Under the pieces are notes generated by a model that saw nothing but the letters and a program-made list of their open reading frames with translations, made no database searches and had not been told where the DNA came from. Positions 13,992 to 60,575 of a stretch of 64,000 nt of DNA are shown piece after piece. The DNA lies in the NCBI GenBank assembly GCA_035504095.1, contig DATJSN010000001.1:54519-118518 (forward strand), written 5' to 3'. The translations under genes were made by a program, and so were the position numbers. This stretch comes from Phycisphaerae bacterium (lineage in GTDB: Bacteria; Planctomycetota; Phycisphaerae; WQYP01). The first letter of the stretch is position 1. The number at the start of each line of letters is the position of its first letter.

Positions 13992-15143
13992 ATGTCTATT
14001 AATAAAATATTTATAAATGTTGCAACCGGGGCCCTTGTGTTGATGATGGGTTCGATGGTTCCAGGTGCCACATCCGCTTCCCAGCCGGCCGCGGAAGAAG
14101 TACAGCTTCAGAGAATGCTTGCCAACAACCTCACCCTTTCGCTTAAAAATGTCAGTTTGACGGATGCCTTCTCCGCGATAGCCCGCAGTGCGCACATTTC
14201 CATTGAAGTTGAACAATCGGTTTATAACTGCCTTCCTTATGGCGACGACACCATCATTGACGTCGCATTTCGCGACGTTCCTCTGCAAACCGCACTGCAG
14301 AAAATCATGGATGAACTTTGTCTTTCAATGGCAGTTTCCAATCAGCACGTGGTTATTGAGCCGTCGGAGGCATTGGTTCGCATCGGCCGCCGCGCCACCT
14401 GGAATGAACTTGACCTCTTGCACAAGCTCAATCAGGTTGTTCAATCTCAATGCACCGGCGATTGGTCCCGGGATCTGCAAAAACTTCTTGACCAGCCGGA
14501 TATTGACGTTGTGCTCTCTCCCACCGACGCTTCGGAACGTGCCATGGCGATCAGCAATGTGCAGGCCCAGTTGCCTTGTCCGATCGCGCAGTCGCTCGAC
14601 GCTTATACCCAATCGTTGCACATGATCTGGTATCTAAGTGACAACCGCATATTTATTCAACCTGGATCAGAATGGATTCGCCAGCAGTTGAGCCGACCGA
14701 TTATTCTCAAACAATCCAATGTGCCGCTGCAACAGGTCGTAAGCGAACTTTCCATGCTTTCCGGCGTGGATTTTAGACCCCAGCCGGGATTGTATCTGGC
14801 CGTTCCTACGGTTAACGTCGATTCCAACGACGGTACCATCCTCCAGACGCTCGATGCGCTCAGCGGCGCCACCGGTATCACGTATCAGATTATGGACGAT
14901 TACGTGCTGCTGGACGTGGTGAACAATAACAGCTCCAGTACTCCCAATCACGAAGTCAATCAACAGGATCCGGTTGTCGGAATGATTCCGATTCCCACCG
15001 GCGTAGGATCTTTGCAATTTGATTATTTCGTCCATGCTTCCGACGTGCCGCCGTCGCTGCTGGCGCAATTACACGCTAAAGCCCAGGAAGTGATTAGTTC
15101 CATTGCCTCGGGGACTGTTCCGACCACGCATCCGGCTAAATAA
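13992..15143 (+). CDS. Secreted hypothetical protein with repeated STN/secretin-N-like segments
   Basis: Signal peptide 'MMGSMVPGATSA'. Two segments look like short STN/NolW-type domains ('VSLTDAFSAIARSAHISIEV', 'VPLQQVVSELSMLSGVDF'). Confidence 0.45.
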   Translation: MSINKIFINVATGALVLMMGSMVPGATSASQPAAEEVQLQRMLANNLTLSLKNVSLTDAFSAIARSAHISIEVEQSVYNCLPYGDDTIIDVAFRDVPLQTALQKIMDELCLSMAVSNQHVVIEPSEALVRIGRRATWNELDLLHKLNQVVQSQCTGDWSRDLQKLLDQPDIDVVLSPTDASERAMAISNVQAQLPCPIAQSLDAYTQSLHMIWYLSDNRIFIQPGSEWIRQQLSRPIILKQSNVPLQQVVSELSMLSGVDFRPQPGLYLAVPTVNVDSNDGTILQTLDALSGATGITYQIMDDYVLLDVVNNNSSSTPNHEVNQQDPVVGMIPIPTGVGSLQFDYFVHASDVPPSLLAQLHAKAQEVISSIASGTVPTTHPAK

Positions 15144-15157
15144 TATGGATCAGTTCG

Positions 15158-16114
15158 ATGATTTCTGAATCCCATCTCCGACCTACGCGTTTGATACAGC
15201 AGGATGGTGCAATTAAATTTTGTCTGTCCGCCGGACATTTTGCCTCACGCGAGCTGGAAACTGAGTCCATCATCATTCCCATGCGCAATTACCACGGTCA
15301 GCGCTGGTACACGCTTTGTATTTCTTCTCAGGTGGGTTGTCGCATGGGTTGCACCTTCTGCCAGACAGGCCGGATGGGATTGCTGGCCAATCTAAGCGCC
15401 GATCAAATCGTCATACAATTTACAACGGCACAGGAGATTCTCCGCCGGCAAGCTGATCGAAGCGAAGCTGCCGAGCCCGGTCTGCGCAACGTCGTATTCA
15501 TGGGCATGGGTGAACCTTTGGATAATTTTAACGCCGTTGTTGCAGCTATTCGTATACTCAATGATCCTGCGGGTCTGAATGTACCGCTTTCCCGCATCAC
15601 GATTTCCACGGTGGGGCGGGTGGACGGCATCCGAAAACTCGCCGAACTTCGCTGGACTTCGCTTCGACTGGCGATTTCCCTGACTGCCGCGGATGATGCC
15701 CTGCGCAATGAGCTTATGCCCGTCAATCGCGCCATGCCATTGGCTGAACTTAAAGAGGCGCTTCTAGATTATCCCCGCACAAGACGCACGCGATTTTTTA
15801 TTGAATATGTGCTGCTAAAAGACGTCAACGATTCAGAGCATCACGCCGATGCTCTGGCGGCCTGGTGCGAATCTCTGCCGGTTCGTGTGAATGTTATTGC
15901 CTACAATCCGCAACAGCCCGCTGCTTACCAGACGCCGGATGACCAGACGATTGTCGCTTTTATTCTGCACTTGCGCCAGAAAGGAATTCTTGCCAAACGG
16001 CGCGTCACCATTGGCCGAGACGTCTTTGGCGCATGCGGCCAACTGGGTAACACAGAATTTCATCGTAAGGAATTGCTTGCTTCAGGCGGAGCGGCGGCGT
16101 CGGCGGCCCAATAA
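15158..16114 (+). CDS. rlmN: Radical-SAM 23S rRNA/tRNA adenine C2-methyltransferase (RlmN/Cfr family)
   Basis: 'CISSQVGCRMGCTFCQTG' CxxxCxxC cluster, and 'VFMGMGEPLDN'. Confidence 0.8.
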   Translation: MISESHLRPTRLIQQDGAIKFCLSAGHFASRELETESIIIPMRNYHGQRWYTLCISSQVGCRMGCTFCQTGRMGLLANLSADQIVIQFTTAQEILRRQADRSEAAEPGLRNVVFMGMGEPLDNFNAVVAAIRILNDPAGLNVPLSRITISTVGRVDGIRKLAELRWTSLRLAISLTAADDALRNELMPVNRAMPLAELKEALLDYPRTRRTRFFIEYVLLKDVNDSEHHADALAAWCESLPVRVNVIAYNPQQPAAYQTPDDQTIVAFILHLRQKGILAKRRVTIGRDVFGACGQLGNTEFHRKELLASGGAAASAAQ

Positions 16115-17008
16115 CAGCATGCCCATGGCTGAACCAGCCAAAGCCAGGCTTGAAGGTTCGGGAACATCTGAAGGGTCGTCGCCGGACCATCTTCCCCAGG
16201 GGTTGGGATCAAAGCGTGGACGTGGAGGCGGGCTGACTGCGGATGTTGTAATGGTAAAGCTTGTTCCGTCGTCGGTGAGCGCAGAGGGTGTTGCGTCGAT
16301 AGTAGGCTGTTCCAGGTCAATGTCGTAGTTGGAAAACGAACTAATCGAGCCGGTAACTCCATTGAGTGTGGCGGAAGCGTCTGTGAACGTAACCGATCCA
16401 AAATTGTCCAGCGGCAATATGCCGTAGCCGTCTGACGGCGCCTCGGCAACCCATTCTGCGCTGGATCGCTTTCCACCGCTCATGGTTTGAGTTGTGCTGT
16501 AGTCTTTGCCTGTCGACAGGTCATCAAGAGATAAGTCGTATTTGTTGTTTCCCAGATAACTTACATCTGCGGAAATGGCATTTCCCGGGTTAATCGCCAG
16601 AGGAATTTCATACGAATAGCTGGGATACATTTCGTACCAGGCATAATAATCCACGCTGCCGCCGACCTTGTCAGCGGAAACACCGATTTGTTCGACTGTC
16701 GAAGAACTGAATCCATCAAGTCCCAGCCAAAATGCTGAATAGCCGCTGCTTGAGTTTGAAGCGATTGTAGGTACCGTCCAGTCGCCTGAAACGTTCGAAA
16801 AAGTTTGGCCCGAGCTGGCAACGTCGGCATAACCGCTCCAGTTCGACGATGCCGTTACCGTGGTGGCGGCCATAAGTGCCGAAGGATGCATAAAAGCCGC
16901 CATGGCGCCCAGAACGCCGGTGCCCAGAGCAATATGTTTGTTAGAGACGAAAATTTTAGTCAGTGTTGAAAACCGGCGGATCGATGGCAAACGGTGCATA
17001 TTGGCCAT
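16082..17008 (-). CDS. Secreted PEP-CTERM protein with a glutamic-peptidase (G1/eqolisin)-like domain
   Basis: C-terminus 'VPEPSSLALAGSAMGMLLLGRRRRRSA' has the PEP motif, a TM helix and an Arg cluster. The body carries 'SSNWSGY...GDWTVP...SAFWLGLDGF...VEQIGVSAD...YYAWYEMYP...AEWVAEAP', which matches the G1 peptidase pattern including the candidate catalytic Gln and Glu. Confidence 0.6.
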   Translation of the reverse strand: MANMHRLPSIRRFSTLTKIFVSNKHIALGTGVLGAMAAFMHPSALMAATTVTASSNWSGYADVASSGQTFSNVSGDWTVPTIASNSSSGYSAFWLGLDGFSSSTVEQIGVSADKVGGSVDYYAWYEMYPSYSYEIPLAINPGNAISADVSYLGNNKYDLSLDDLSTGKDYSTTQTMSGGKRSSAEWVAEAPSDGYGILPLDNFGSVTFTDASATLNGVTGSISSFSNYDIDLEQPTIDATPSALTDDGTSFTITTSAVSPPPRPRFDPNPWGRWSGDDPSDVPEPSSLALAGSAMGMLLLGRRRRRSA

Positions 17009-17139
17009 TGAGAGTCCTCCCCCATGTTAGAGCCGTATCATGTATGAGAAACTCTAACCTTATAATGAGCCAGGATCAACCATAAACCTCAAAACTCAAT
17101 CAACACTAGCCAACCGGCAATGCAACCTTCATTCTTTCT

Positions 17140-17988
17140 TTATATTCCAATGCCTTGCTTTCGTGTTTGCGATTGTGCGGCGGTTTGCCGCCTTTCACCG
17201 TCAATAATGCTTTGCAACGGATGACCGATCGCCTGCCTTATCCCAGCTCGAAACCGTTCCGCGATCATCAGCATGACCACCATGGCGATCACCGGCCAGA
17301 GCACATAACGAATCACGATCAGCAGGCGCTGATCAAAGTTAATCCCCTGGCCGGGCGGCGGAAGAAATACCACAATGAGCGTATTAATCAGTTCATTGGC
17401 GGAATACAAAACGCCGGGTATAGGAAATCCCGGCAAAAGGCTCTGCCACGGCAAAACAATAAACAGCAGAATGACGGACGCAATAAGTCCACGCGTCATG
17501 TGTGCTGATCCAGGTGCGCGTGCCGCAAGAATCAAAATCCACGTCAAAAAAATCAAAATGACCTGTAATGCCGCCGTGATTACGCCAATCTGTTGTGTCA
17601 CAGGCGCCGCCAGATAATACGTCGTTGCCCATTCGGAGCGTAAATTCAGTTTGCGCCCCTGAGCATCGGTCAGCCATCGCGCAGCGCCGTAATTTTCCAC
17701 GGTCTGACCGCCGGTCCATTGGTTTTGTGCCGGATTTTCATCCACTACGAAAACACCCGAAACGGTTGTTACCGCCGGCTGACTTGCCGGACGATGCGCT
17801 GCGGACGGAGTGGTTGCTACCACGGGATTACTGCCGGTATAAGGTTCGGTGGAGAACCGCACGAGAAGAAATCCAATCACCTGTGTAATCACGCAGATAA
17901 ACAGCAGTATCCCCAGCGTATTGCGTCCTGTGCCCAGTGCACGCAGGGCTATACCGTATTCGCCGTAGGGATGAACTGGTTCGGCCAT
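17140..17988 (-). CDS. Polytopic membrane protein, hypothetical
   Basis: About 5 predicted TM helices. Start placed at 'MAEPVHPYGEYG'. Confidence 0.45.
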   Translation of the reverse strand: MAEPVHPYGEYGIALRALGTGRNTLGILLFICVITQVIGFLLVRFSTEPYTGSNPVVATTPSAAHRPASQPAVTTVSGVFVVDENPAQNQWTGGQTVENYGAARWLTDAQGRKLNLRSEWATTYYLAAPVTQQIGVITAALQVILIFLTWILILAARAPGSAHMTRGLIASVILLFIVLPWQSLLPGFPIPGVLYSANELINTLIVVFLPPPGQGINFDQRLLIVIRYVLWPVIAMVVMLMIAERFRAGIRQAIGHPLQSIIDGERRQTAAQSQTRKQGIGI

Positions 17989-18082
17989 GAAAAATCGCCT
18001 TATGCTTCCGGTCATTATACAGTGGCCGCATTGTTATGGCCCTGGAATTCTCTGATAATCTCCTCGGCATCATGCGGAGTAA

Positions 18083-19963
18083 TTGGTGAACATTCAGAAT
18101 CTTATACCTGCACCGAAAGTGGTCAGTAATTTTCCGGGAGCCTGGAAACTTCCGGTTAATGGAACAATTTCATTAGCTCTTTCCGATGAAGGGCTTCAGA
18201 ATTCCGCGCATAAGTTGTGCGGCATTCTTTCTGCGCGAACTCATTCATCATGGTCCTGGATTGCTTCACATGCTTCCGCAGGCGGCACGATTCAGTTTGT
18301 GCTTTCTCCCTGTGTACAACACGTACAGGGATATGAACTTGTCGTCGATAAGCAAGGCGTACAAGCCCGTGCTTCCACCCCCGAGGGTTTGTTTTACGCG
18401 GCTCAAACGTTGTTGCAACTGATCAATATTCATCCACGGCGTTTACCGCATCTGGAAATTGTGGATTGGCCCGACTACGAGCGCCGTGGTTTTTATCTGG
18501 ACATATCCCGCGGCAAGGTTCCCAAACTCGCAACTATTCTTGATTTAGTCGACCGACTGGCGGCGCTGAAAATCAATGAATTCCAACTTTATGTGGAAAA
18601 TGTTTTTAAATTCCGTGCGCATCCGGATTTTTATCGCGATACTACGCCATTGACCGCTGCCGAAATCCGCCAGATTGATACGGCCTGCCGCCACCGGCAC
18701 ATTGATTTTGTTCCATCGCTGACTTCGCTGGGCCACTTTGACAAAATCCTCCGTCTTGGACGCTACCGGCGTCTTGCAGAAATTGAGCCCGGGGATTTAG
18801 CTAAACAGGGCATTAAACCGTGGAGCGATGATCCCTGGACCCTCAACGTAAGCGATCCAAAATCACGGCGACTCCTTGCCGGCATGTATGACGAATTTTT
18901 GCCTAATTTTTCCAGTTCCCTAATGAACATCTGCTGCGATGAGCCCTGGGATTTGGGTAAAGGTAAAAGCCGCGCTAAAGCAACAAAGCTTGGAACCGGC
19001 CGGATTTATGTTGACTGGATTGGTTTTTGCGCCGGATTAGCGGCACGACATGGCAAACGCGTTCAGTTGTGGGCGGACATTATCATCAAGCATCCCGATC
19101 TGGTAAGTGAATTGCCTAAAGACGCCATTCTGCTTGAATGGGGCTATGAGTTCGACCATCCGTTTCCAAGACACGGCCGATTGCTCGCTGCTTCCCGCCG
19201 GGCATTTTACATTTGCCCGGGAACTTCAAGCTGGCAATCGCTTGGCGGGCGAAACTCCAATAGCTTCACCAATATCCGCTCCGCCGCACGGGCGGGTCTA
19301 TCCTCCGGTGCAGTAGGCCTTCTTAATACCGACTGGGGCGATTATGGGCATCAGCAGATGTCGGCGGTGAGCCTGCTGCCCAGCGCTGCCGGCGCCGCAC
19401 TTGCCTGGAACGTGAACCAAACCGACCGCTCAATCATCCAGGCTGCGGCGGTTCATGTACTACATTCCACTGCCCAGGTCGCACAGGCGGTTTTTGATTT
19501 AGGCAACGTTTCCAGTCGTATCAGCGGTAAGCGAATCCGCAATGCCTCGTTGGAATTTTTTCTTTTCCGCGAGCCATGGGAAAAACACGAGAAACTCAAA
19601 TTGCTCAAAATAAACAGATTGAAGCCGGAAATAAATGGGGCAAAAAAAATGATCCAAATATTTTCTACTGCCGCCGGAAAAGCGCCACCCGATCAGAAGT
19701 GGATTTTTGATGAACTTTCTTTTACCGCTCGATTGCTTCTTCACGTACTTTTGCGCACCGATTGCCGGCTTTCCCATAGCGGGACGGGTGAAAGAAGTAA
19801 AAAATTGTGGGCCAAAATTATGGCGACGCAGGCGGCGGACATTCGCCGGCTCTCCGTCGAATTTCGCACGCTCTGGCTGGCGCGTAATAAGCGTTCGCGT
19901 TTGGATGACGTTCTGGCTCACTTCAGGCGTCTGGAGAAGGAATACCGGTCTAGAGGCTCATAA
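18083..19963 (+). CDS. Glycoside hydrolase family 20-like (beta-N-acetylhexosaminidase-like)
   Basis: GH20-type N-terminal domain. 'RRGFYLDISRGKVPKLATILDLVDRLAALKINEFQLYVEN' matches the GH20 catalytic TIM barrel. 'NICCDEPWDLG' lies in the HxGGDE region. Confidence 0.55.
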   Translation: MVNIQNLIPAPKVVSNFPGAWKLPVNGTISLALSDEGLQNSAHKLCGILSARTHSSWSWIASHASAGGTIQFVLSPCVQHVQGYELVVDKQGVQARASTPEGLFYAAQTLLQLINIHPRRLPHLEIVDWPDYERRGFYLDISRGKVPKLATILDLVDRLAALKINEFQLYVENVFKFRAHPDFYRDTTPLTAAEIRQIDTACRHRHIDFVPSLTSLGHFDKILRLGRYRRLAEIEPGDLAKQGIKPWSDDPWTLNVSDPKSRRLLAGMYDEFLPNFSSSLMNICCDEPWDLGKGKSRAKATKLGTGRIYVDWIGFCAGLAARHGKRVQLWADIIIKHPDLVSELPKDAILLEWGYEFDHPFPRHGRLLAASRRAFYICPGTSSWQSLGGRNSNSFTNIRSAARAGLSSGAVGLLNTDWGDYGHQQMSAVSLLPSAAGAALAWNVNQTDRSIIQAAAVHVLHSTAQVAQAVFDLGNVSSRISGKRIRNASLEFFLFREPWEKHEKLKLLKINRLKPEINGAKKMIQIFSTAAGKAPPDQKWIFDELSFTARLLLHVLLRTDCRLSHSGTGERSKKLWAKIMATQAADIRRLSVEFRTLWLARNKRSRLDDVLAHFRRLEKEYRSRGS

Positions 19964-21902: not shown

Positions 21903-22556
21903 ATGAAAAATATAATATTAGTAATACTTGGAGTGCTATCTTTTACTATAGGTGGCGCATTAGTCCTTGCTTGGCCCGTATTCGTCTATCTTTCAATTTT
22001 TGAGTTTGACGCGCCAAGCCGCGGTCCTTGGGATTATCCTGCTCGTTATGCCATCGTTTGTGCTCTTTTAGCTTATCCTATTCCGTATATTCTGGCTTTA
22101 ATCTTTTTAATACGACAATGGCATAGAGACAGATTTCATGTGTTAACCTCGCTTTCTGGCTTAATTCCATTTCTGTATATTGCTGGCTTTTTTACAATAA
22201 TAGTTCTGATTTCGACAACGATGTCTCATAAGACAATCGCACCAAATGTCATTTTGAAAACGGACGGGACCTATTATTCTTTAGTAGATAATAATGGGCG
22301 AGTGATTGTGGATCAAAACGTTATATCTTACGAAGTTATCGGTTCAAAACAATTGGTTTTGGTAAGACGAGCTCCTCTAAGGTTAGTAATCGACAATATT
22401 ACTACGTATAACTTATCAAACAACCTATATTATGCTGTAAATACGCTGAATGGTTCTGTATCAGCTCCTCTTTCTAAAAGTGAGTTCCAAAAAAAATATG
22501 CTTTGCCTGATGAATCGCAGGTATTCAAAGATTCGATGCAGATGCCGGGAGAATAA
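21903..22556 (+). CDS. Hypothetical membrane protein encoded in a low-GC island
   Basis: Four N-terminal TM helices and a soluble C-terminal domain. Local GC is far below the window average. No SD sequence. Confidence 0.5.
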   Translation: MKNIILVILGVLSFTIGGALVLAWPVFVYLSIFEFDAPSRGPWDYPARYAIVCALLAYPIPYILALIFLIRQWHRDRFHVLTSLSGLIPFLYIAGFFTIIVLISTTMSHKTIAPNVILKTDGTYYSLVDNNGRVIVDQNVISYEVIGSKQLVLVRRAPLRLVIDNITTYNLSNNLYYAVNTLNGSVSAPLSKSEFQKKYALPDESQVFKDSMQMPGE

Positions 22557-22706: not shown

Positions 22707-24236
22707 ATGGCGGCGTGGGTCAAAATCATCATTTATTTTACGCTCTGCATGCAATTGCGAGCCTATTGGAAATATATTCCCATTTCCTATGACACCACGC
22801 GTCTAACCTCGCCGGTAAAACAGGATGGATCCATAGATTACCTGGCGGCACTGAATATAAAATGTTCCCAGGGCGTGACGCCTGAAAATAATGCGGTGGT
22901 GGTTCTTCTGCGCGCTGCGGGATCAGATTATATTAATGGCCCACCGGACTATAAAAAAGAATATATGAATATGCTGGGTGTGATGTCACTGCCGTCGCCA
23001 AAACATCCGTTCGTTTATTTGTACGATTATTTATCCAAGCACGGTTTTCAATGGCAGGACGTGGACCACATTTATGGAGAGGTAACGAGAAAGCCTTTTA
23101 CCGATAGCCAATATCCGCAAGTGGGGCACTGGCTCGATTCACAACAGGACTTTATCAACGCCTATCTGGCGGCTTCGCAGATGTCGCATTGGTATGACCC
23201 TATTACTAGTAATACAGAACAATTCCAGATGTTGGCCGGTTTTCCCCGCCTGCTTTCGGCATTTAAATTTATGACGGAGAGTGTCGGGATAGATGCCATG
23301 TATGATCTTGGAGAAAACGACGTTGATGTTGCTTTGGATGACGCCCTGGCTATTCATCGTCTGACTCATTTACAAGCTCGAGTGTCGGCTATGGTCGTTC
23401 AATTAATGATCGCTGGAAGAGAAGAGGAATTCGCGGCCGATATCGACCAGCAAATCATTGCCAGTGGACTATTGAGCACAAATGACGCCAAACGAATGGC
23501 GGATGCTCTGGGTGATTTAAGGCCGCTGCCGGCCTTTTCAGAATCAATTGATGGTGAAGAACGTTATTTTGCACTTGATGCTCTTGAGAATCTCGCGCGG
23601 GGACGTCATTATCAAGTAGGCTTTTTGCAAGGTTTTGGTCCAGCCCAGCCGCAGGCGGCATTTTCTCAATTCGTTGGGCAACTATTGCCCCCGCAGCTTT
23701 CCTCCTGGGATCAAATTTCATATTTATTTGACTGGTGTGTGTTTAGAGTTGTTCCGGTTCATTATGTATTTTTAATGATCCAAGACAATCATTTTTATGA
23801 CGACTGGATGCGAATTTCTCAGGCTAAAACTTATGATCAGGCACTGTCTGAACAAAAAACGCTGAATCCAGAATCGCGTATCATGGACAGCTCATTTGCC
23901 GACGATATAGTCAAAACAATCGCATGGCGGCCGTATATTTCAAATCGCCTTATTCAGGAACAGTTCGCATATCAAACCATTCTTCCGATGGTGCGCACCG
24001 AATATGCCCTGGCCGCCTGGCATACCGATCATGGTGATTATCCCAAAGTTTTGACCGCATTAGTCCCGCAATATCTGTCCAGCGTTCCCATCGATCCGTT
24101 TGATGGCCAACCGTTGCGCTATGCGCCAACCGCCAACGGCTACAGGCTCTGGAGCATCGGCGCAACCAAACCAGGACTTACAGGGTGGTTTAGTACGGGT
24201 CTGCAATTCACCATGCCGCCGGAAAAGCAAGACTAA
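22707..24236 (+). CDS. Hypothetical protein (509 aa) with an N-terminal hydrophobic anchor
   Basis: Long ORF in a reduced-GC region. No recognised motifs. Confidence 0.5.
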   Translation: MAAWVKIIIYFTLCMQLRAYWKYIPISYDTTRLTSPVKQDGSIDYLAALNIKCSQGVTPENNAVVVLLRAAGSDYINGPPDYKKEYMNMLGVMSLPSPKHPFVYLYDYLSKHGFQWQDVDHIYGEVTRKPFTDSQYPQVGHWLDSQQDFINAYLAASQMSHWYDPITSNTEQFQMLAGFPRLLSAFKFMTESVGIDAMYDLGENDVDVALDDALAIHRLTHLQARVSAMVVQLMIAGREEEFAADIDQQIIASGLLSTNDAKRMADALGDLRPLPAFSESIDGEERYFALDALENLARGRHYQVGFLQGFGPAQPQAAFSQFVGQLLPPQLSSWDQISYLFDWCVFRVVPVHYVFLMIQDNHFYDDWMRISQAKTYDQALSEQKTLNPESRIMDSSFADDIVKTIAWRPYISNRLIQEQFAYQTILPMVRTEYALAAWHTDHGDYPKVLTALVPQYLSSVPIDPFDGQPLRYAPTANGYRLWSIGATKPGLTGWFSTGLQFTMPPEKQD

Positions 24237-29125: not shown

Positions 29126-30787
29126 TTAAAAGCCGAAGGCGATCTCAGCAGTCACACCGCTGAAGCGTGGATTGTCGGAGGCGACAACACCGCTCACCAT
29201 ACCGGTGTCGGGGGCAAAGTTATAATACTGCTGATAGACGTACTCTACTTTGGTGAGAATACTCTTGGTCAGCCAGTAGCCGCCGCCAACCTGAACGCGT
29301 CCGACCCAGCCATTGGTGTCGACGCCATGAACAGCACCGGCATAAGCAAAACTATATTGTGCCGCCACATACAATGGAGCGGTGATATGGTAAGTCGCCA
29401 TGGCCTGCCCATAAAGCCACCGTTCGTCGTAGGCGGAGTCCTGGGTCCATCCGACATTTCCATACATTTCCCACGGCCAGTGGTTCCAGGTTATATCACC
29501 CTGATAAGCCTGAACATCGAGTCCGGCTTCAGGTGTGATCTGGCCGCCATCATCACCGGCATTGAAAATGCCGTTATAAGGTTCGCCACTGCGTGTGGAG
29601 GCATACAGATCCGTGATCTGATTATCGGTAGCGAGATCTTCGGCGTTAGCAGTGCCTCCGAGGTCGCAATAGTATACGGAAGCCGATAGCCGTAAATCAT
29701 TGCCGATATAGCCCCAAACTTTGCCGTGAACAGCAGGATTGCTGCCATAATCAAAGTAGCCGGTAGTAGTGCCGTTGCTAAATCCAGCCAGCCAGTATAT
29801 GGGACCTTTGACGGAGTAGAGTTCGAAACCGATTTGTTCTGCGCTGGGATCCACCACGGCGTTTCCAATCAATGGGTTAAGCTCAACGAAAGCGTTGTTC
29901 GACCGGTGGAAGTTTTGATCACCGAAGTCGATGTCAAATGCACCGGCTTTGAGATTGATATAGTTAAAGATATCTCCAATTGGACCGCCGGCGAAAGGAG
30001 GGGGCAATTGTTTAATGATCAAATAACCCTGGTCGCCATACGTCGTGCTGGGGTGCCCAACGCTGGATAGGTACAAATCGAAGAAGACATCCAATTTCCC
30101 GGGAATGGTTGCCAGAAAATCGAGATTGCCATAGGCCGTTTGGAAGCCCGGATCTAAACCAGGATACTCTACTGCGGGCATTGGAGGAGTGTGATAAGCG
30201 GCTTGCTGGGTGAGTGCCTGATAACGGCCGACGGTTTGCACGCCTATGTAAAATCGCATGTCCCCGAGCTGGCCTATCTGCATGTTCATATCAGGCCGAA
30301 TGTGTGAGGGATTCTGGTTTTCGAAAGGCGAAAAATAGTTGATGCCAGTTGGAGGAGTAAACATGTTCTGAAACGTCTCGGAAATGTTATTATCGGTAGG
30401 ATGTTCGGCAAGGTCCGCCGAAATCGTTTCGGAGTTGGACATGACCTCTTTGTAAATCGAATCAATGGCTTTGGCCTGGGCCTCGGCCGTGGCCTGAGCT
30501 GTGGCCTGGGATTCCGCTGTCGTGGCATTTTGCGTTTTTAGAACGGCGATCTGCTGTTCCAGGCTTGCCTCCGTAGCCTGGCTGGCGGCCTGGTCTTTTT
30601 TGAGAGCGGCCAACTGCTGCGCCATTGCCTGCATCTCGGCTTGTACTGCTGTGTTGCTGGTTGTTGTGGTGGTTGCGGCTGAAGTTGAGCTTGAATTTGC
30701 AGCGGCGGTATCGGCCCATAATGCCGGCACCGGCAAAGTTACGGCTGCAAGTGCGATACACATAGCCATTTTTTGTTTGAATGTCAT
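29126..30787 (-). CDS. Outer-membrane beta-barrel (porin-like) protein with an N-terminal coiled coil
   Basis: Signal peptide. Ala/Gln-rich heptad segment 'AVQAEMQAMAQQLAALKKDQAASQ...'. Gly/Tyr-rich alternating strands. C-terminal '...AEIAFGF' ends in Phe as in OMP beta-barrels. Confidence 0.5.
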   Translation of the reverse strand: MTFKQKMAMCIALAAVTLPVPALWADTAAANSSSTSAATTTTTSNTAVQAEMQAMAQQLAALKKDQAASQATEASLEQQIAVLKTQNATTAESQATAQATAEAQAKAIDSIYKEVMSNSETISADLAEHPTDNNISETFQNMFTPPTGINYFSPFENQNPSHIRPDMNMQIGQLGDMRFYIGVQTVGRYQALTQQAAYHTPPMPAVEYPGLDPGFQTAYGNLDFLATIPGKLDVFFDLYLSSVGHPSTTYGDQGYLIIKQLPPPFAGGPIGDIFNYINLKAGAFDIDFGDQNFHRSNNAFVELNPLIGNAVVDPSAEQIGFELYSVKGPIYWLAGFSNGTTTGYFDYGSNPAVHGKVWGYIGNDLRLSASVYYCDLGGTANAEDLATDNQITDLYASTRSGEPYNGIFNAGDDGGQITPEAGLDVQAYQGDITWNHWPWEMYGNVGWTQDSAYDERWLYGQAMATYHITAPLYVAAQYSFAYAGAVHGVDTNGWVGRVQVGGGYWLTKSILTKVEYVYQQYYNFAPDTGMVSGVVASDNPRFSGVTAEIAFGF

Positions 30788-37912: not shown

Positions 37913-40900
37913 TTATATCGACGGCTCGGCCCCGATGGTTCCCACCAAATGTTTGACATATTCCGGATCGCTCACCCGGGCAAATTGAGATTCGGCTTCG
38001 GCAAGCCTGGCTTGCATTTCCAAATGGCCGCTTCCACTTTCACTGCCCGATTCGTCGATAAAGGCCTGCACGCTTTGAATGTGCCGTTTCCATAGGGCAA
38101 TGTCGCGCTCTTGTTTGGTCTTCAGCCGGTCGTGATACCACTGGCTGCTGAGCAAATAATCACGGGTAAACATGGCGCGAATATCGGGGTGATGAACGTC
38201 TTTACCCTCATAATTGCCGTGGGCCATGATGTGCAAGAGCGCCTTGAGCGGAGGGCAGGCCGTTTCGACTGAACCATCCTCAAAATATCCCAAGGCCACG
38301 CGCTGCTGGGTTTGCACAATGTTCATAATGCCGTCGACATAAACATCCATACTTTGACTTTCAGGCTTGAGCATGGCCAAATCAAAAATGCGGGCTGGAT
38401 TGTCAAAAATTCGGCCGAGGAACGTACGCATGAACTTGGCAGTGATGCGATAGCCGAGACGGCTGGCGGGCACCGGACCGTCCTTGTAAAGAAAATCATG
38501 AAGCTTTTCCAAATGGCCATTGGTAATCAGAAATTCCGGCTCGCGTTCGTGAGGATGCAAACGGCACCATAGTTCCGGGATCAGCAGGCTGATGTCGTGA
38601 TCGACACGGCAATTCGGGCCGACATAACCAGCGGCGGTGGAAAATCCACCCAGACCAGTGAGTATGTAGCTGACCAGCGCGGCGTTGAGATCGGCGGTGG
38701 TTTGCAGGGCATTAAAGGGCCCTTTGGTCATGGCGCCTTCGCTGCCAGCGCCGGTGGTAGAAGGACTTTTTCCGGTGAGGCTGGAAATAAAATCCATGAA
38801 CAGTTCAGGCAATTCCTGGTAATGAATAGGGTTAAATACAGCCAGAGCACGTATGCCGGATTCGGGATCGGGCGGATTATTGCGCCGCCCTAGCAAAACT
38901 GCGTGAACAGGAAAGGCGATGGTGGTTGTCAACGGCAGCGCTCGCGCCAGGCGGACGCCTATCTGGGCGACATAAGTGTCGAGCGGTTTGGCCAGGTCGG
39001 TGCGGAATTGCAAATAGCGCGGATTTTTTGATGGCTTACCGCCAATAAGCCGGGGATGGGCGGACGAAACCACATAACCATCGCCGGCGTTGGCGGCCTG
39101 GGTGAGCAATTCTTTCATTGGAGGCGTGTAGCCGTCGAATTCGGTGATACGTCCGACAATTTCTCGTATTGCATGTGTGTCGAGCGGTTCGAAATTAGAG
39201 AGAAAGTTGTCTTTTTGCGCCAGGTCCGACTCGGTCTGCTTATCCAGGCCGGGGTGAATGGCGTCATCAGGGCGCTGGAAGAGCCGTTGTTCAACGTTGG
39301 TCACCAGCTTCAGGCTCGGTCCGGACAGGCCGAACGGTTTGGAATGGATCCAGGAAACCGGCAGGGTAACCGAAGCGGAGATGTCGTCTTCCATCTGGAT
39401 TTTGGCGGCCGGGAAAAAATCCTGGCGGACTTTAAACGTGCGCCACGCTCCATCGGGCAGCAGGCCGACGCGCAAATAGGTGCCGCCGACTTTACGGTTG
39501 TCCATCTTGAGTTCATGGCCCTGTTCGCCGTTGATGATGTCGACGGAAAAATGTTTGCGCCAGTCGTCGCCCCATTCCCGTTTGTAAAGGCGCTTGATCA
39601 GAAACACCAGCGCCAGAATGTCGCTGTGAATTGAACTGAGCCAGTGGTTGTACTCATCGGTGTAATCAGCAGTGGGGGTGAGCAGTTTGATCACGCTGCC
39701 CAGCGACCGCTCCAGACTCAAAATCGGACGGCTGGGTATTTGATCGTAATCGTGCGGCGCTTTGCCCGGTTTCCAACGAACGCTGTGATCTTTGAGCAGT
39801 ATTGCTTCAACCTGGTCCAGATCGTGCTGCAGATTCCCCACATAAATCGGGCCGTAGATCATGTAATCAGAAAGACTTTTGCTGATTTCGCTTTTGCCGC
39901 CGCCGCTGACCGTACATGGTTTGTGGCAGAAAACGCCTTCCGCGGAAGTTACAACGAGGCGAAAACGACCGGTTCCCGGATGCCGGCTCAGATAGACTTT
40001 CTGGCCGGACGGTGTCAGGTAAATATTGTCTGCCAGCAGGGGCAGGCTCTGCTCTTTGTCGTCGGTTTTCCATTGGATTTGCAGTGAGTGTAGATCCATG
40101 TGGGCGTCTTCGGGCAGATAAATAACATTGGGATGCAGTTTGTCCACGGCATAACCGGTGGGCGAAACGTCCATGATCGGGGCGTAGTCGCGAACCACAT
40201 CGGCAAAGGTCCGCCGATTCCAATATTTTTCATGCTGCACAAATTCATTGCCCAGGCTGTAGCTGGGATAGGCTACTGCGCCGCCGGCGTGTTCTTCTTC
40301 AGCGTTGCCCATCAGGTTGGCGGCAAAACTGATCTGAGTTTTAACTTCCTTTTTGCAATAACCGTAATAATTGTCAGCGATCAGGGTAACTATAACGCCC
40401 GCGGAACTGCGGCAGCAGACTTTGAACGCGGAGCCGCCGTTATATAGTTCATCCGGAGTTTTCCAGCACATGCCGTCGCGGCGCTGCCGCTCCGTGGCGT
40501 CTTTAAACTCTGGCAGGCCGAGTTGTTTTTTGGTCAGGCTGACCAGGTGCGGTGCCAGGATGACACAGCCCGTGTGCCCGGTCCAGTGATAAACGTCCAG
40601 GCCGGCGTCGTTTTCCGGCAATACAGGATCACCGGCGTTGCCGAAAATCGATTCGACAAAGTCCAGATTGCTTACGAGGCTGCCAGGTGCAAAGAAGCGG
40701 CACTCCATGGTTTTTTGCGGGCTGGTGGCGGGAATTTCCGGAACGACAATGGGCCGGAGCAATAATGAACAGAAAATTTCCACCGGGTGCGCGGCGTCGG
40801 CCGTATAGGGCAGCAATAAAAACTGGCGCGGTGGATTAACCGCGTGGCGGAACAAGGCTGCAAAAACGTGCGCGGAGACCGCGATTTTGTCCGCCGGAAC

Positions 40901-41362
40901 CGGCAGGCCGCAGTCCGCGATGTGGAACGTTCCCTGCGTGGTGCGCCGGTCGCTGCGCGGATTGTGCAATACGCCGTTGCGCACGCGATAACTTGTAAGC
41001 AGATTGCTTTCAAAATGATCACGACCTTCAGGAAATGAAAGCTCCCGTGACAGTCCCGGTTCATCGAGGCTCAGCGTGGACGACGGCAGGCGCAATGGTT
41101 CTCGAAGATTCAGTGGCGCAAATAATTCGGCGAGAAAGGTTTCGATGCGGCGGTCGGCCGGACAACGGTAATGGCGGAGCAGTAGGCTCTTCTGGCGGAA
41201 ATTAGCCAAAAGACCGGAGGCAAGATGTTCCAGTCCGTCGCCCTGAGTGTTTTGCTCATCGGATGTAAAACCGAGCGCCTGAAACTTCAGACGGATAAAG
41301 CGGTCGATGGCGGCGCGACCATTGGCGGCGGTGGGGCTTTTTTGAGTACCGACGTGCGACAT
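37913..41362 (-). CDS. Large (1149 aa) cytoplasmic protein of unknown function
   Basis: Uninterrupted 3.45 kb ORF. No signal peptide or TM segment. No motif I can assign. Co-directional with the methyltransferase and the S41 protease genes. Confidence 0.6.
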   Translation of the reverse strand: MSHVGTQKSPTAANGRAAIDRFIRLKFQALGFTSDEQNTQGDGLEHLASGLLANFRQKSLLLRHYRCPADRRIETFLAELFAPLNLREPLRLPSSTLSLDEPGLSRELSFPEGRDHFESNLLTSYRVRNGVLHNPRSDRRTTQGTFHIADCGLPVPADKIAVSAHVFAALFRHAVNPPRQFLLLPYTADAAHPVEIFCSLLLRPIVVPEIPATSPQKTMECRFFAPGSLVSNLDFVESIFGNAGDPVLPENDAGLDVYHWTGHTGCVILAPHLVSLTKKQLGLPEFKDATERQRRDGMCWKTPDELYNGGSAFKVCCRSSAGVIVTLIADNYYGYCKKEVKTQISFAANLMGNAEEEHAGGAVAYPSYSLGNEFVQHEKYWNRRTFADVVRDYAPIMDVSPTGYAVDKLHPNVIYLPEDAHMDLHSLQIQWKTDDKEQSLPLLADNIYLTPSGQKVYLSRHPGTGRFRLVVTSAEGVFCHKPCTVSGGGKSEISKSLSDYMIYGPIYVGNLQHDLDQVEAILLKDHSVRWKPGKAPHDYDQIPSRPILSLERSLGSVIKLLTPTADYTDEYNHWLSSIHSDILALVFLIKRLYKREWGDDWRKHFSVDIINGEQGHELKMDNRKVGGTYLRVGLLPDGAWRTFKVRQDFFPAAKIQMEDDISASVTLPVSWIHSKPFGLSGPSLKLVTNVEQRLFQRPDDAIHPGLDKQTESDLAQKDNFLSNFEPLDTHAIREIVGRITEFDGYTPPMKELLTQAANAGDGYVVSSAHPRLIGGKPSKNPRYLQFRTDLAKPLDTYVAQIGVRLARALPLTTTIAFPVHAVLLGRRNNPPDPESGIRALAVFNPIHYQELPELFMDFISSLTGKSPSTTGAGSEGAMTKGPFNALQTTADLNAALVSYILTGLGGFSTAAGYVGPNCRVDHDISLLIPELWCRLHPHEREPEFLITNGHLEKLHDFLYKDGPVPASRLGYRITAKFMRTFLGRIFDNPARIFDLAMLKPESQSMDVYVDGIMNIVQTQQRVALGYFEDGSVETACPPLKALLHIMAHGNYEGKDVHHPDIRAMFTRDYLLSSQWYHDRLKTKQERDIALWKRHIQSVQAFIDESGSESGSGHLEMQARLAEAESQFARVSDPEYVKHLVGTIGAEPSI

Positions 41363-45512: not shown

Positions 45513-48500
45513 TCAGGCGTTTTTTCCGCAGCATTGTTTGTATTTTTTGCCGCTGCCGCATGGGCAGGGATCGTTGCGGCCGACTTTGGGATCGGTGTTC
45601 TGAATCGGGGCGGCTTTATCCGGGACGTTCTGGGTATTGCCGCCGCCGCGTTGTGTTTGGCCGTCCTGTCCTGATGCCGTGGCGGCATCGACGCCATACG
45701 ACTGGCGTACGTCAAACCGCGCCCGCTGATTGGCATAAACATTACGCATCTGTTCAACCGAGGCGACCTTGATGCGGAAAATCACTTCCGTCACCCGTTC
45801 GCGCAGTGCCTTGAGAAATTCATTAAAAAGCCGCGACCCTTCGCGCTTGTATTCAATGATCGGATCGCGCTGGGCAATGCCCCTTAAGCCGATTGTGCCG
45901 CGGAGCTGATCCATGGCATACAGGTGATCTTTCCATGTGACGTCGAATATCTGCAGCAGCACCGATCTTTCCAGTTCGGTTAATTCCTTGCGCAAAAACG
46001 AATGCGCCAGTTCCGAAATGCGTTCGCGCCGTTCGGCGCCGTCTTCGCCTTCAAATTCATCCGGCGGGGCGATGGTCACGAACCTTTGGCTCACCCAGGC
46101 TGCGAGCGTTTTGGATTCCGGGAATTTTTCGACAGCTTCATCGATCTGCTTATCGATGGTTTCCGTTATATTGCGAGAGGCGTCCACAAGCATGGCGCGC
46201 AATTTGTCCGGCGGTGTGGCGCGAACCTGTTCGCCGGTCAGCGAAACCGCAAATTTTGCGCGAATCCATGCCGCGAACTGCTCGGAGGCGTAAACATTTT
46301 CAATGCCGCCGGCTCCCATGGTGGCTTGGATGGCGTAGTCGACCGGATATTCGATCTCGCGTTTCTGATAAGTCTTTCGGGCCAGGGCCAGAATCAGATC
46401 CACGGCCTGGTCCTGCGTTTTGCCGGCAAGGTCCTGTGCGGTGATGGGAATGGTGAATTTTTCCACGGCCCACCGGGCAAGTTCCTGTTCGGCATAGTTT
46501 TTGACAAGATATTTACTAAGCGGTGAAAAATCTTTTTGATCGATCTGATCCAGCGCTTTTTCCACCAGAGTATCCGCGATATGTTCGCGATCGAGCTTCT
46601 TGAGCTGGGCCTGACTGATCTGCACACGAAACTGGCTCATAACCCAGGCGGACAATCCCGCGTAGTCCCAATCCTCAGGGTCGGCGTCGGGATCCATAAA
46701 CTCCGATATCGAAATGTGGATATTGCCGCGAGCTTCCTCGCGAGCCTTGTTTTTGATCGTCATTTCCAACACCGCCAGTTCCGCATCGCGCAGTTCGGAC
46801 GGATCGATCGGCGTGTTCATATTGGTTCGAATCCATTCGCTGATGCAGGTTGGAACGTAGTCGCGATTGAGGTAAATGGACACAGCGTCGCGTACGGCGT
46901 CTTCAATGATTTCAAAAATTACCTGCTGCAGATTGCGTCCTTCCAGAATGGTCTGACGGACCGTGTAAAAATAACGCCGTTGGTGTTCGCGGATTTCGTC
47001 GTATTCCAACAGGCTTTTGCGAATGCCGAAGTTTCGTTCTTCGACTTTTTTCTGCGCCCGCTTGACGGTGCGCGACACCAGACCGTGTTCAATGGGTTCG
47101 TTTTCCTTTACGCCGAGGCGCTGCATCGCCCGCAGCATAAAGTCGCTGGCGAAAAGCTTCATCAAGTCATCTTCAAGGCTCAGGAAAAACCGCGACTTGC
47201 CCGGGTCGCCTTGCCGCCCGGATCGTCCGCGCAACTGATTGTCGATGCGCCGCGCTTCATGACGCTCGGTGCCCAGCACGAATAACCCGCCGGCTTCGAT
47301 GACACCCGGTCCCAGAGTGATATCCGTTCCGCGCCCGGCCATGTTGGTCGCAATGGTGACTGCACCGACGGTTTTGCTGAGTTTATCGACGTATTGGCGG
47401 CCCGCTTTGGCAATGATTTCCGCCTCGCGTTCGTGGTTTTTGGCGTTGAGCACCTCATGCTCAATTCCATAACGACGCGTAAGCATGTTGGAAAGCCGTT
47501 CGGATTTTTCCACACTGGTGGTGCCCACCAGAACGGGCTGGCCTTTTTCAGAAACTTCATGGATGGTTTCCAGAATGCTTTCCCACTTGGCGCGTTCGGT
47601 CATGTAAATCAGGTCGTCGAAATCCTGGCGAACCACCGGACGATTGGTTGGAATAGTTACAACTTCAAGGTTGTAAATCTTCTGGAATTCCTCCGCCTCG
47701 GTCATGGCCGTGCCGGTCATGCCCGCCAGCTTGGCGTAAAGTTTGAAGAAATTCTGAATGGTGATGGTGGCGATCGTCTGCGTTTCGGGTTTGACGCGTA
47801 CGCGTTCTTTGGCTTCGGTCGCCTGATGCAAACCTTCGCTCCATTGGCGGCCCACCATTAAACGGCCGGTGAATTCATCCACGATAATTACTTCGCCGTT
47901 TTGCACCACGTAATCGCGGTCTTTTTCGTAGACCACGTGGGCGCGCAGGCTTTGTTCCAGGAGGTGCGGCCAGTCCATGTTACTGCCGATATAAAACGAA
48001 CCCACGCCGGCAAATTCCTGCGCCATTTTTATTCCTTCGTGGGTTAATTGGACGGATTTTCGATCGAGTTCAACTTCGTACAACTGGACCTGAGTCGCGA
48101 GGTGTTGCTCGGCCTTTTGCAATTCCGGCTGGGTGTCGGCAATCAGCTTCTGAAGCCTGGTGATTTTTTCCTGATCGCCGCGCGAGTTTTTAATATCGCC
48201 TTCGGAACCTTTGATGATCCGCTGCAACTGCTCTACACGTTCGTTGGCCTGATCCCAGGGCTTCTGGGCTGCAATAAGTTTGCGGGCAACTTCGTCGGCG
48301 GCGCGATAGCGCGGAGAGTCGTCGTGGGCCGGGCCGCTGATGATCAGGGGTGTGCGGGCTTCGTCGATGAGAATGCTGTCCACTTCATCGACGATCGCAT
48401 AGTGCAAAGGGCTTTGCACTTGTTCCTGTATGCTTTGCTTCATGTTGTCGCGGAGATAATCAAACCCAAATTCGCTTGCGGTACCATAGGTGACATTACA

Positions 48501-49211
48501 CTGATAGGCGACTTTTCGCGGTGCGTTGTCCATCTGCGCCTGGATAAACCCGACGGAAATTCCCAGGCTATATAACGCCGGCGCAACCCAGGCGGCGTCG
48601 CGTCGGACGAGATAGTCATTGACCGTTACCACGTGACAATGCCTGCCCCTTAACGCCATCAGGCAGCAGGCCAGCGCGGCGACAAATGTTTTGCCTTCGC
48701 CGGTGGCCATTTCGGCGATTTTGCCGTCATAAAGCACCATGCCACCGATAAGCTGCACGTCGAAGGGGCGCGCCCGGTAGGGCGGCCGAGAGTCCGGAAC
48801 GACAAGGCGGATGGCTTCATAAAGTTCCGGCGGCACTTCCACGAATCGCCAATCGTGTTCCTTGACGCATTTAGCCTTCGCCTGTTTAAATAATTCCTGC
48901 CCCGCCGGACTCAATTTTTCCACGTCAAAGGGTAAAGCGGGATTCAGGGCGTTTCTGAGTCCGATCTGCCGATCCATCGCTTCTCGCATCAGTGCAAACG
49001 CTTCAGGCAAAACCGCCGAGTCGTTTTCGCCATCCGCAAGCCGTTTGCGGAGTTCATCCGCTTTCTGTCGCATTTGTACATCAGTCATGGACCGGATTTG
49101 CGGCTCGAGTTTGTTGATCAGCTCGACCTGACGGTTGTAGGTTTTGATCAGGCGTTCATTTCGGGAGCCGAAGATCGCCGCGAGTGTTTTATTGAAAATA
49201 GTCGCAACCAT
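45513..49211 (-). CDS. secA: Preprotein translocase ATPase SecA (long form, 1232 aa)
   Basis: '[12 protein letters not shown]' N-terminus. DEAD-like motor motifs ('MATGEGKT', '[21 protein letters not shown]', '[10 protein letters not shown]'). C-terminal zinc finger '[14 protein letters not shown]'. Confidence 0.95.
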   Translation of the reverse strand: [1232 protein letters not shown]

Positions 49212-60560: not shown

Positions 60561-60575
60561 AAAAATTTCCGTTGA

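Follow-up and report, generated by a model that had tools for sequence, protein, structure and literature searches.

The window, the 64-kb stretch of Phycisphaerae DNA that was analysed here, contains a complete coding sequence at positions 16082–17008 of the minus strand. In the list of open reading frames it encodes 308 amino acids followed by a stop codon at 16082–16084, and its translation is 100% identical to NCBI entry HTV46854.1. The plus-strand translation of the same segment is full of stops. A Shine–Dalgarno-like GGAGG sequence is located about 8 nt 5′ of the ATG at 17008. Six short strings that a preliminary description of this DNA had quoted (SSNWSGY, GDWTVP, FWLGLDGF, VEQIGV, YYAWYEMYP and AEWVAEAP) are all found in the protein and in this order. 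The product is a glutamic (MEROPS G1) peptidase that carries a PEP-CTERM tag. A scan of 15800–18300 for promoters and terminators returned counts equal to the shuffle expectation and is uninformative.

On the 5′ side of the peptidase gene, across a gap of 131 bp, lies a minus-strand reading frame for a polytopic membrane protein (17140–17988/18015). It had been placed downstream in the preliminary description; because the peptidase gene is on the minus strand, it is in fact upstream.

N-terminal region

Residues 1–48 (16865–17008, minus strand) form a predicted Sec signal peptide, as judged from hydropathy, charge, low pLDDT and the N-termini of the homologues, which carry equivalent segments. 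The n-region is basic (five Lys/Arg residues, pI 12), the hydrophobic core IALGTGVLGAMAAFM spans residues 26–40 and the segment contains an ALMA/A cleavage-type motif, of which the exact site is a prediction. Both the signal peptide and its cleavage were assigned by eye together with a hydropathy and charge calculation. In the AlphaFold model the segment has pLDDT values below 50. The sequence SIRRFS looks like a twin-arginine motif; the Arg pair, however, is not retained in the closest homologues (Arg-Asn in P0002 and P0003) and a Tat signal was rejected.

Only about five to six residues separate the predicted end of the signal peptide from the conserved SNW motif. This leaves no space for a prosegment, and latency, if there is any, would thus not be relieved by autocatalytic removal of a propeptide.

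Catalytic domain and fold

Residues 49–260 (16229–16864, minus strand) make up the G1 (eqolisin or Peptidase_A4) catalytic domain. A profile search with PF01828 (Peptidase_A4, MEROPS G1) matches residues 55–245 with E = 1.9e-36 and 125.9 bits, against a curated cut-off of 22.3, and covers profile positions 1–197 of 206. With phmmer, the heavy chain of aspergilloglutamic peptidase (AGP) matches the 308-residue protein with E = 1.5e-16.

The alignment to AGP places Gln107, within VEQIGV, on Gln B24, and Glu189, within AEWVAEAP, on Glu B110; their codons, at 16688–16690 and 16442–16444 of the minus strand, were verified. In AGP these residues are the catalytic glutamine and the catalytic general base, respectively, and Trp B10 hydrogen-bonds the catalytic glutamate (PMC8147669). 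The counterpart of Trp B10 is Trp94 in FWLGLDG (16727–16729, minus strand), and Asp98 of the same motif (16715–16717, minus strand) aligns to Asp B14. In SGP the dyad corresponds to Gln53 and Glu136, and AGP Asp14 appears to be the equivalent of SGP Asp43, given the identical ten-residue spacing to the catalytic glutamine. Gln107 and Glu189 are invariant among 120 relatives, and Trp94 and Asp98 are each at least 90% conserved in the same set.

AlphaFold predicts an all-β sandwich with pLDDT above 90 over about residues 50–260. When this model was submitted to Foldseek, the best five matches were SGP and AGP structures only, with TM scores, normalized on the target, of 0.71–0.87. Superposition on scytalidoglutamic peptidase (SGP; PDB entry 2ifw, chain A) gives E = 7e-14, a TM score of 0.82 and an r.m.s.d. 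of 2.7 Å, and that on AGP (PDB entry 1y43, chain B) gives a TM score of 0.87 and an r.m.s.d. of 2.2 Å. The domain is strongly acidic (pI 4.05; 24 Asp and Glu against five Lys and Arg) and contains neither cysteine nor histidine. Profile score, residue alignment, invariance among the relatives, model and fold search thus agree, and they bear out the preliminary assignment of a G1 domain with a Gln/Glu dyad.

The G1 fold is a concanavalin-like β-sandwich of two antiparallel sheets, lectins and glucanases occur among the weaker Foldseek matches, and MEROPS includes some non-peptidase G1 homologues that lack the catalytic residues (PMC3009609). The protein could accordingly be imagined as a surface-exposed pseudo-peptidase, or as a lectin-like module for binding, with no catalytic activity. 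We consider this very improbable, as all four key residues (the dyad and the supporting Trp and Asp) are in place and vary little or not at all, and true peptidases lead the structural matches by about seven orders of magnitude in E-value.

Linker and PEP-CTERM tail

The catalytic domain is followed by a disordered linker rich in Pro, Arg, Trp and Gly (residues 261–280, PPRPRFDPNPWGRWSGDDPS; 16169–16228, minus strand; pLDDT below 50). Comparable Arg/Gly/Trp-rich linkers, such as RGRGGWGW, are found in the closest PEP-CTERM-bearing relatives.

Residues 281–308 (16085–16168, minus strand) constitute the PEP-CTERM sorting signal, identified from two profiles, conservation and hydropathy. The protein ends with DVPEPSSLALAGSAMGMLLLGRRRRRSA, in which VPEP (PEP codons at 16154–16162) is followed by the hydrophobic helix SSLALAGSAMGMLLLG and the basic cluster RRRRR; the hydropathy peak coincides with residues 286–302. 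PF07589 scores 23.1 bits against a curated cut-off of 20.7 (residues 281–305 of 308) and TIGR02595 scores 18.5 bits against 16 (residues 282–305). The margins above both thresholds are modest. With this tripartite layout at the extreme C-terminus, the sorting signal proposed in the preliminary description holds. Among 14 aligned members of the subclade Pro283 is invariant and Glu284 and Pro285 are at least 90% conserved, with PEP kept in 13 of the 14, and the combination of VPEPS, helix and basic tail persists in relatives as distant as about 44% identity. VPEP(S) is retained while the linker and the helix have diverged, which points to a sorting enzyme that recognizes the motif.

Sorting machinery and host envelope

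Pfam scans of the approximately 42 reading frames of the 64-kb window revealed no exosortase, and a six-frame regular-expression scan found no second PEP-CTERM protein in the window, which is a small sample of the genome. PEP-CTERM proteins have a median of eight paralogues per genome (Haft, 2006; PMC1569441). The same study lists Planctomycetes among the PEP-CTERM-positive phyla and reports a perfect co-occurrence of PEP-CTERM with EpsH/exosortase in complete genomes. Exosortase substrates appear to reach the cell surface (PMC11980579). In related Phycisphaerae-like genomes, contigs carry genes for BamD/YfiO, LptE and LptF/G, an indirect indication of an outer membrane.

The lack of an exosortase gene within the 64 kb, the single PEP-CTERM protein in this stretch and profile scores close to their cut-offs would all suit an active G1 peptidase whose tail is a plain transmembrane anchor, with the enzyme facing the periplasm on the cytoplasmic membrane and exosortase cleavage playing no part. 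Simple C-terminal anchoring also seems common in the family, many G1 relatives ending in a non-PEP helix and a basic tail. Conservation of Pro283, Glu284 and Pro285 next to a diverged linker and helix speaks against such an anchor, as do the perfect co-occurrence with EpsH and the known presence of the system in Planctomycetes, and we regard it as unlikely.

The PEP-CTERM tag probably sends the peptidase to the cell surface. The likely reading of the whole protein is a secreted, eqolisin-type G1 endopeptidase that is sorted by an exosortase to the surface or the exopolysaccharide layer, where it would cleave extracellular proteins. The N-terminal signal peptide would direct Sec export, and the C-terminal helix would retain the protein in the cytoplasmic membrane, its Arg cluster on the inner side. 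An exosortase with its gene in another part of the genome would then cut at or near VPEP and hand the enzyme over to the cell surface or to the exopolysaccharide layer, with the flexible Pro/Arg/Trp-rich linker serving as a stalk. There the enzyme would cut extracellular proteins by the G1 mechanism, with Glu189 as the general base that activates a water molecule and Gln107 stabilizing the tetrahedral intermediate, and peptides freed near the cell could be taken up. By analogy with the characterized members of family G1, for which an acidic pH optimum and insensitivity to pepstatin are typical, the enzyme is expected to work best under acidic conditions, and the catalytic-domain pI of about 4 would be compatible with this.

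The neighbouring membrane protein

The membrane protein encoded at 17140–17988 has about four transmembrane helices and no Pfam or NCBIfam match, and it is not exosortase-like. The two genes share a strand, are only 131 bp apart and are flanked by genes on the opposite strand, and the pair is kept in a syntenic relative (L002) in which the membrane protein is 77% identical and the peptidase 65%. Such an arrangement would suit a two-gene module in which the membrane protein serves the peptidase alone, as a partner that sorts it, activates it or confers immunity. Its high conservation is, however, limited to this one syntenic relative. In two further loci with PEP-CTERM G1 genes (L003 and L005) a lipoprotein lies upstream that is unrelated to the membrane protein (BLASTP E = 2.0 and 0.30). 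The membrane-protein family has 37 members, and in L087–L092 they stand without a G1 neighbour; around these distant homologues the GH20/PfkB or radical-SAM context is the same but a G1 gene is absent. A functional link was therefore rejected, and a dedicated module is highly unlikely. Judging from the G1-free contexts of the homologues, the peptidase gene looks as if it had been inserted, in this lineage only, beside a membrane-protein gene that was already in place.

Comparison with known systems

The closest structural relatives are the fungal enzymes SGP (eqolisin, G01.001; PDB entries 2IFW and 1S2B) and AGP (G01.002; PDB entry 1Y43). They share with the bacterial protein the fold described above, the Gln/Glu dyad, the supporting Trp and Asp and an acidic catalytic domain, at a sequence identity of only 26–30%. 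SGP has about 54 prepro residues, whereas the protein studied here has no prosegment. Unlike SGP and AGP it contains no cysteines and hence no disulfides, and the two-chain processing of AGP is absent. The C-terminal linker and PEP-CTERM tag are in turn not found in the fungal enzymes.

Among bacteria, pepG1 of Alicyclobacillus sp. DSM 15716 is the only biochemically characterized G1 peptidase; its pH optimum is 3–4, and the in vivo role of prokaryotic G1 peptidases is stated to be unknown (PMC3009609). Its conserved dyad, Gln117/Glu199, corresponds to Gln107/Glu189. Both prokaryotic proteins have an N-terminal signal peptide (predicted in our case), and mature pepG1 has no disulfides, as is expected for the cysteine-free protein described here. 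In pepG1 about 27 residues separate the predicted signal cleavage, after residue 33, from the mature N-terminus at residues 60–62, while no such segment exists in our protein. Furthermore, pepG1 comes from a Gram-positive thermoacidophile and is secreted in free form, whereas the present protein is PEP-CTERM-tagged and belongs to a probably diderm Planctomycetota host.

With the PEP-CTERM system as described (PMC1569441) the protein shares the tripartite C-terminal signal, a predicted N-terminal signal peptide, a host phylum that uses the system and a passenger rich in Ser and Thr (28% of its residues). Typical passengers have 'little homology to known proteins', whereas the passenger here is a recognizable enzyme.

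Distribution and annotation

G1 peptidases are common among both bacteria and archaea. The family comprises 7744 cluster representatives at 50% identity (E ≤ 1e-3), and species genomes of bacteria and archaea from many phyla contain at least 585 G1 loci, which overturns the earlier statement that G1 peptidases are rare in bacteria. The further suggestion that a surface-anchored, exosortase-dependent copy would be unusual holds in a weak sense only. Fusion to PEP-CTERM is a minority architecture, seen in about 8% of the retrieved relatives and in one of the 80 best GTDB loci, and the named examples are without exception from Phycisphaerae, but the family itself is common and the protein is already annotated. 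HTV46854.1 is named 'G1 family glutamic endopeptidase [Phycisphaerae bacterium]', and a 65% identical JGI homologue (P0004) with the same gene neighbourhood is labelled 'Peptidase A4 family/PEP-CTERM motif'; nothing in the architecture of either entry differs from that of the protein described here. Both domains are thus already captured by automated annotation. In the searchable literature we found no description of a G1 peptidase combined with PEP-CTERM, and a search for glutamic peptidases in Planctomycetes gave nothing beyond an irrelevant mention in a methods section.

Many G1 relatives from similar organisms have a C-terminus consisting of a non-PEP hydrophobic helix and a basic tail. 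Other related proteins join the G1 domain to a different C-terminal anchor, for instance an autotransporter-like one, and retention at the surface may thus be a theme that recurs. No NCBIfam model matches the DACF... C-terminus of the relatives that are about 450 residues long. In a crude neighbour-joining tree of 249 G1 domains the tagged sequences are scattered over 14 separate pure clades, and several tagged domains have an untagged nearest neighbour. Rather than a single origin of the fusion, this pattern suggests repeated gain or loss of the tag, although the tree is too rough for a claim. Relatives are enriched in metagenome-assembled genomes with peat- or palsa-soil isolate names and in acidophile genera such as Streptacidiphilus and Catenulispora. 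A search for the habitat through the accession numbers found no publication.

Biological implications

Prokaryotic G1 peptidases are numerous and almost all uncharacterized, with one enzyme, pepG1, having been studied. Within this family the protein described here is fairly ordinary, the family being common and the correct name already being present in public databases. The combination of a G1 domain with PEP-CTERM indicates that some Planctomycetota retain an acid-type protease at their surface instead of releasing it, and a passenger whose enzymatic activity is easy to read out would be a convenient reporter for the poorly understood exosortase pathway. These two points leave current understanding unchanged and their importance is modest.

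A more far-reaching reading, which we put forward as a long shot, is that this Phycisphaerae clade holds the first glutamic peptidases that are exosortase-sorted and tethered to the surface or the exopolysaccharide layer, acting as prosegment-free 'foraging' proteases. Their pH profile would perhaps be shifted from the strictly acid optimum that all characterized G1 enzymes share, because the surface of a non-acidophile cell is not at pH 3. If this were true, the Gln/Glu dyad would be known to operate over a wider range and the study of PEP-CTERM sorting would gain a defined enzymatic passenger.

Gene location and genomic surroundings

The peptidase is encoded on the minus strand (16082–17008) by an ORF of 308 amino acids, with a Shine–Dalgarno-like GGAGG about 8 nt 5′ of the ATG at position 17008, and the plus-strand translation of the same interval is full of stops. 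The strings SSNWSGY, GDWTVP, FWLGLDGF, VEQIGV, YYAWYEMYP and AEWVAEAP quoted in the preliminary description are all found in this ORF, as is the C-terminal tail of VPEP, a hydrophobic stretch and RRRRR. The exact protein is present in NCBI, within a 119 kb contig, as HTV46854.1, 'G1 family glutamic endopeptidase [Phycisphaerae bacterium]', and a 65%-identical homologue carries the JGI label 'Peptidase A4 family/PEP-CTERM motif'. The peptidase is an uncharacterised new member of a known enzyme family with a known sorting tag, and its automated annotation is already correct.

An RlmN/Cfr-like radical-SAM gene (15158–16114, plus strand) is convergent with the peptidase gene, the two 3′ ends overlapping by 33 bp. 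Its product of only 318 amino acids falls short of the trusted cut-off for RlmN (248.5 versus 290 bits) and lacks the usual N-terminal domain, since it aligns to the profile from position 77 on; it is kept at 310 amino acids in the syntenic relative L002. The gene for a 383-amino-acid secreted protein (13992–15143, plus strand) is likewise syntenic in L002. This protein has a partial STN (secretin/TonB N-terminal) domain, its sole Pfam match apart from a weak FecR_C match, and has no NCBIfam match.

The window is ordinary Planctomycetota chromosome, encoding DUF1800/DUF1501, SecA, ribosomal proteins S9 and L13, EngA, squalene–hopene cyclase, GH20 and GH92 glycoside hydrolases, an ECF sigma factor, a two-component system and three OGT-like TPR proteins. 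The last are consecutive TPR plus GT41 (O-GlcNAc-transferase-like) genes whose products have 699, 835 and 245 amino acids (58461–63942, minus strand). SecA (45513–49211, minus strand) is unusually long at 1232 amino acids and appears to contain a large insertion, as its match to the 290-position DEAD-like profile is spread over residues 12–510. Four large ORFs have no Pfam match at E ≤ 1e-3: 37913–41362 (minus, 1149 amino acids), 29126–30787 (minus, 553), 22707–24236 (plus, 509) and 21903–22556 (plus, 217).

Catalytic domain and fold

Residues 55–245 match PF01828 (Peptidase_A4, MEROPS G1) with E = 1.9e-36 and 125.9 bits in the Pfam scan (gathering score 22.3), covering profile positions 1–197 of 206, and the G1 assignment of the preliminary description thus holds. 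A phmmer search of PDB sequences retrieves the heavy chain of aspergilloglutamic peptidase (AGP; 1y43_B) with E = 1.5e-16. In AGP the catalytic dyad consists of Glu B110 and Gln B24, and Trp B10 makes a hydrogen bond to Glu B110 (PMC8147669). These residues align with Glu189, Gln107 and Trp94 of the peptidase, so that both members of the dyad are retained. Asp98 aligns with AGP Asp B14, which lies ten residues ahead of the catalytic Gln, a spacing equal to that of Asp43 to Gln53 in scytalidoglutamic peptidase (SGP). Gln107 and Glu189 are invariant in an alignment of 120 relatives, and Trp94 and Asp98 are conserved at 90% or more. That the protein is a pseudo-enzyme is very improbable.

The AlphaFold2 model built from the 120-sequence alignment is all-β, with pLDDT > 90 over about residues 50–258, and is disordered in the signal peptide, in the linker and in the PEP-CTERM tail. 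In Foldseek it superposes best on SGP and AGP: 2ifw_A (SGP; E = 7e-14, TM-score on target 0.82, r.m.s.d. 2.7 Å), 2ifr_A (SGP; 8.2e-14, 0.79, 3.4 Å), 1s2b (SGP; 9.4e-12, 0.71, 7.2 Å), 1y43_B (AGP; 3.9e-10, 0.87, 2.2 Å) and 3trs_D (AGP; 8.0e-10, 0.85, 2.3 Å). Lectin-like proteins, YncM/CPAVM1 and neprosin form a second tier at E = 1e-6 or weaker.

Domain layout and sorting signal

A Sec-type signal peptide is predicted for residues 1–48 by heuristic judgement (basic n-region, hydrophobic core 26–40, ALMA|A motif). The catalytic domain (residues 49–260) has a pI of 4.05, 24 Asp and Glu against five Lys and Arg, 28% Ser/Thr and no Cys. A disordered Pro/Arg/Trp-rich linker (residues 261–280; 16169–16228, minus strand) leads into the PEP-CTERM signal (residues 281–308: VPEP, hydrophobic stretch, RRRRR), which is matched above threshold by both curated models, PF07589 (23.1 bits, threshold 20.7) and TIGR02595 (18.5 bits, threshold 16). 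The peptidase has an intact G1 catalytic domain and a conserved PEP-CTERM signal.

In a 14-sequence subclade alignment Pro283 is invariant and Glu284 and Pro285 are conserved at 90% or more; the linker and helix vary around them, which points to selection on the motif. A plain membrane anchor, to which no exosortase processing would apply, is an unlikely reading of this tail. The 64 kb window contains neither an exosortase nor a second PEP-CTERM protein. The linker composition, rich in Pro, Arg, Gly and Trp, is kept in P0002, P0003, P0007 and P0008, the closest relatives with a PEP-CTERM tag (PWGRWSG in the peptidase; RGRGGWGW or RGRRGWGWRG in relatives), and the linker might serve in polysaccharide interaction or as a modification site.

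The SNW motif starts at residue 54, only about 5–6 residues past the predicted cleavage site, which leaves no room for a prosegment. In contrast, the fungal G1 enzymes are preproenzymes that undergo autocatalytic activation in acid, and in pepG1 of Alicyclobacillus sp. DSM 15716 about 27 residues separate the signal peptide from the mature N-terminus (PMC3009609). The median SNW position among 218 sequences is residue 43.5; by this measure a short N-terminus is common among prokaryotic G1 relatives.

Distribution of the family and its anchors

The word-indexed search gave 4374 relatives at E ≤ 1e-3 among 8000 scored candidates. An exhaustive HMMER scan of 1.84 billion representatives at 50% identity gave 7744 at E ≤ 1e-3, of which 4651 reach E ≤ 1e-10 and 572 reach E ≤ 1e-30. 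With each GTDB species represented by one genome, a further scan gave at least 585 loci. The loci listed include Planctomycetota, Acidobacteriota, Actinomycetota, Chloroflexota, Saccharibacteria, Dormibacterota, Thermoplasmata, Bathyarchaeia, Nitrososphaerales and methanogens, and many are MAGs with peat- or palsa-soil isolate names or belong to acidophilic actinomycete genera. The statement that G1 peptidases are mostly fungal and rare in bacteria is contradicted by these numbers; it is the literature view of 2004–2018 and is out of step with current sequence space.

A PEP-CTERM-type tail is present in 18 to about 20 of 254 retrieved relatives (∼8%) and in one of the 80 best of the GTDB loci (L020, likewise Phycisphaerae); all tagged sequences with a taxon name are from Phycisphaerae. 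The preliminary description was right in its observation and structural interpretation, and the PEP-CTERM fusion is indeed a minority architecture, but the claim that the protein is surprising is unsupported. In a crude NJ tree, too rough to rely on, the tagged sequences are scattered, compatible with repeated gain or loss of the tag. The searchable literature contains no paper naming glutamic peptidases together with PEP-CTERM and no characterised planctomycetal G1 enzyme.

Other ends occur among the relatives. About 72 of the 254, of 430–480 amino acids (P0012, P0014, P0021, P0044, P0068 and others), end in a non-PEP hydrophobic helix and an Arg-rich tail. Eleven of these share a conserved DACF(I/A)E about 45 residues from the end, followed by a hydrophobic GVVLTLALGGxW and the Arg-rich tail; this module, unmatched by NCBIfam models, might be a C-terminal anchor or sorting signal, Cys-containing and so far undescribed. 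The giant proteins P0125 (1201 amino acids) and P0126 (3701) and the locus L059 have ends like autotransporter barrels. In these and in L007 the G1 domain is N-terminal, and the barrel-like C-terminal strings include ...YEAQLG...LGLAIALK and ...FAGLAVSF. Such fusions would be another surface-display route for the G1 domain in Planctomycetota. One 938-amino-acid relative combines autotransporter-type repeats with PEP-CTERM.

The adjacent membrane-protein gene

The polytopic membrane protein gene (17140–17988, minus strand), previously placed downstream, lies upstream across a 131 bp gap, because the peptidase gene is on the minus strand. Its product (282 amino acids, about four TM helices, an extracytoplasmic loop of about 80 residues) has no match in Pfam or NCBIfam and belongs to a narrow family of 37 members on Phycisphaerae-like contigs, whose genes often adjoin a divergent GH20 hexosaminidase gene.

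The two genes might form a functional pair, and they do occur together in L002 (membrane protein 77% identical), the only such case. Their neighbours differ both ways elsewhere, and we rejected the pairing as highly unlikely. In L089 and L090 the GH20–PfkB–membrane-protein order of the window continues with a tyrosyl-tRNA synthetase gene (PF00579, tRNA-synt_1b), not a peptidase; in L091 and L092 a radical-SAM gene comes directly after the membrane-protein gene, and in L087 BamD/LptE. Conversely, the PEP-CTERM G1 genes of L003 and L005 are preceded by a Pro/Tyr-rich lipoprotein gene unrelated to the membrane ORF. As each occurs without the other, the peptidase gene has the look of a lineage-specific insertion next to a gene already resident there.

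The lipoproteins (L003, 383–889, plus strand; L005, 9295–9786, plus strand) have an LAGC lipobox and no Pfam match. They are 163–168 amino acids long and 71% mutually identical, and are encoded directly 5′ of the G1 genes, with a different genomic context in each case. The lipoprotein and PEP-CTERM G1 genes may together make up a small, conserved unit in this subclade.

Proposed route and implications

From what is established for the two systems, G1 and PEP-CTERM, we infer that the peptidase would be exported by Sec and retained transiently by its C-terminal helix, that an exosortase whose gene lies elsewhere would cut it at or near VPEP, and that it would so reach the cell surface or EPS (Haft 2006, PMC1569441; PMC11980579). 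It would then act in extracellular endoproteolysis, with Glu189 as the general base and Gln107 stabilizing the transition state (PMC8147669). An acidic pH optimum is probable, in line with all characterized G1 enzymes (PMC3009609), and fits the domain pI of about 4.

The interest that is left lies in G1 peptidases with a sorting signal as an object of study and in what prokaryotic G1 enzymes do in vivo. As relatives fuse the G1 domain to several different retention devices, surface retention seems to be a recurrent theme in this region of the family.
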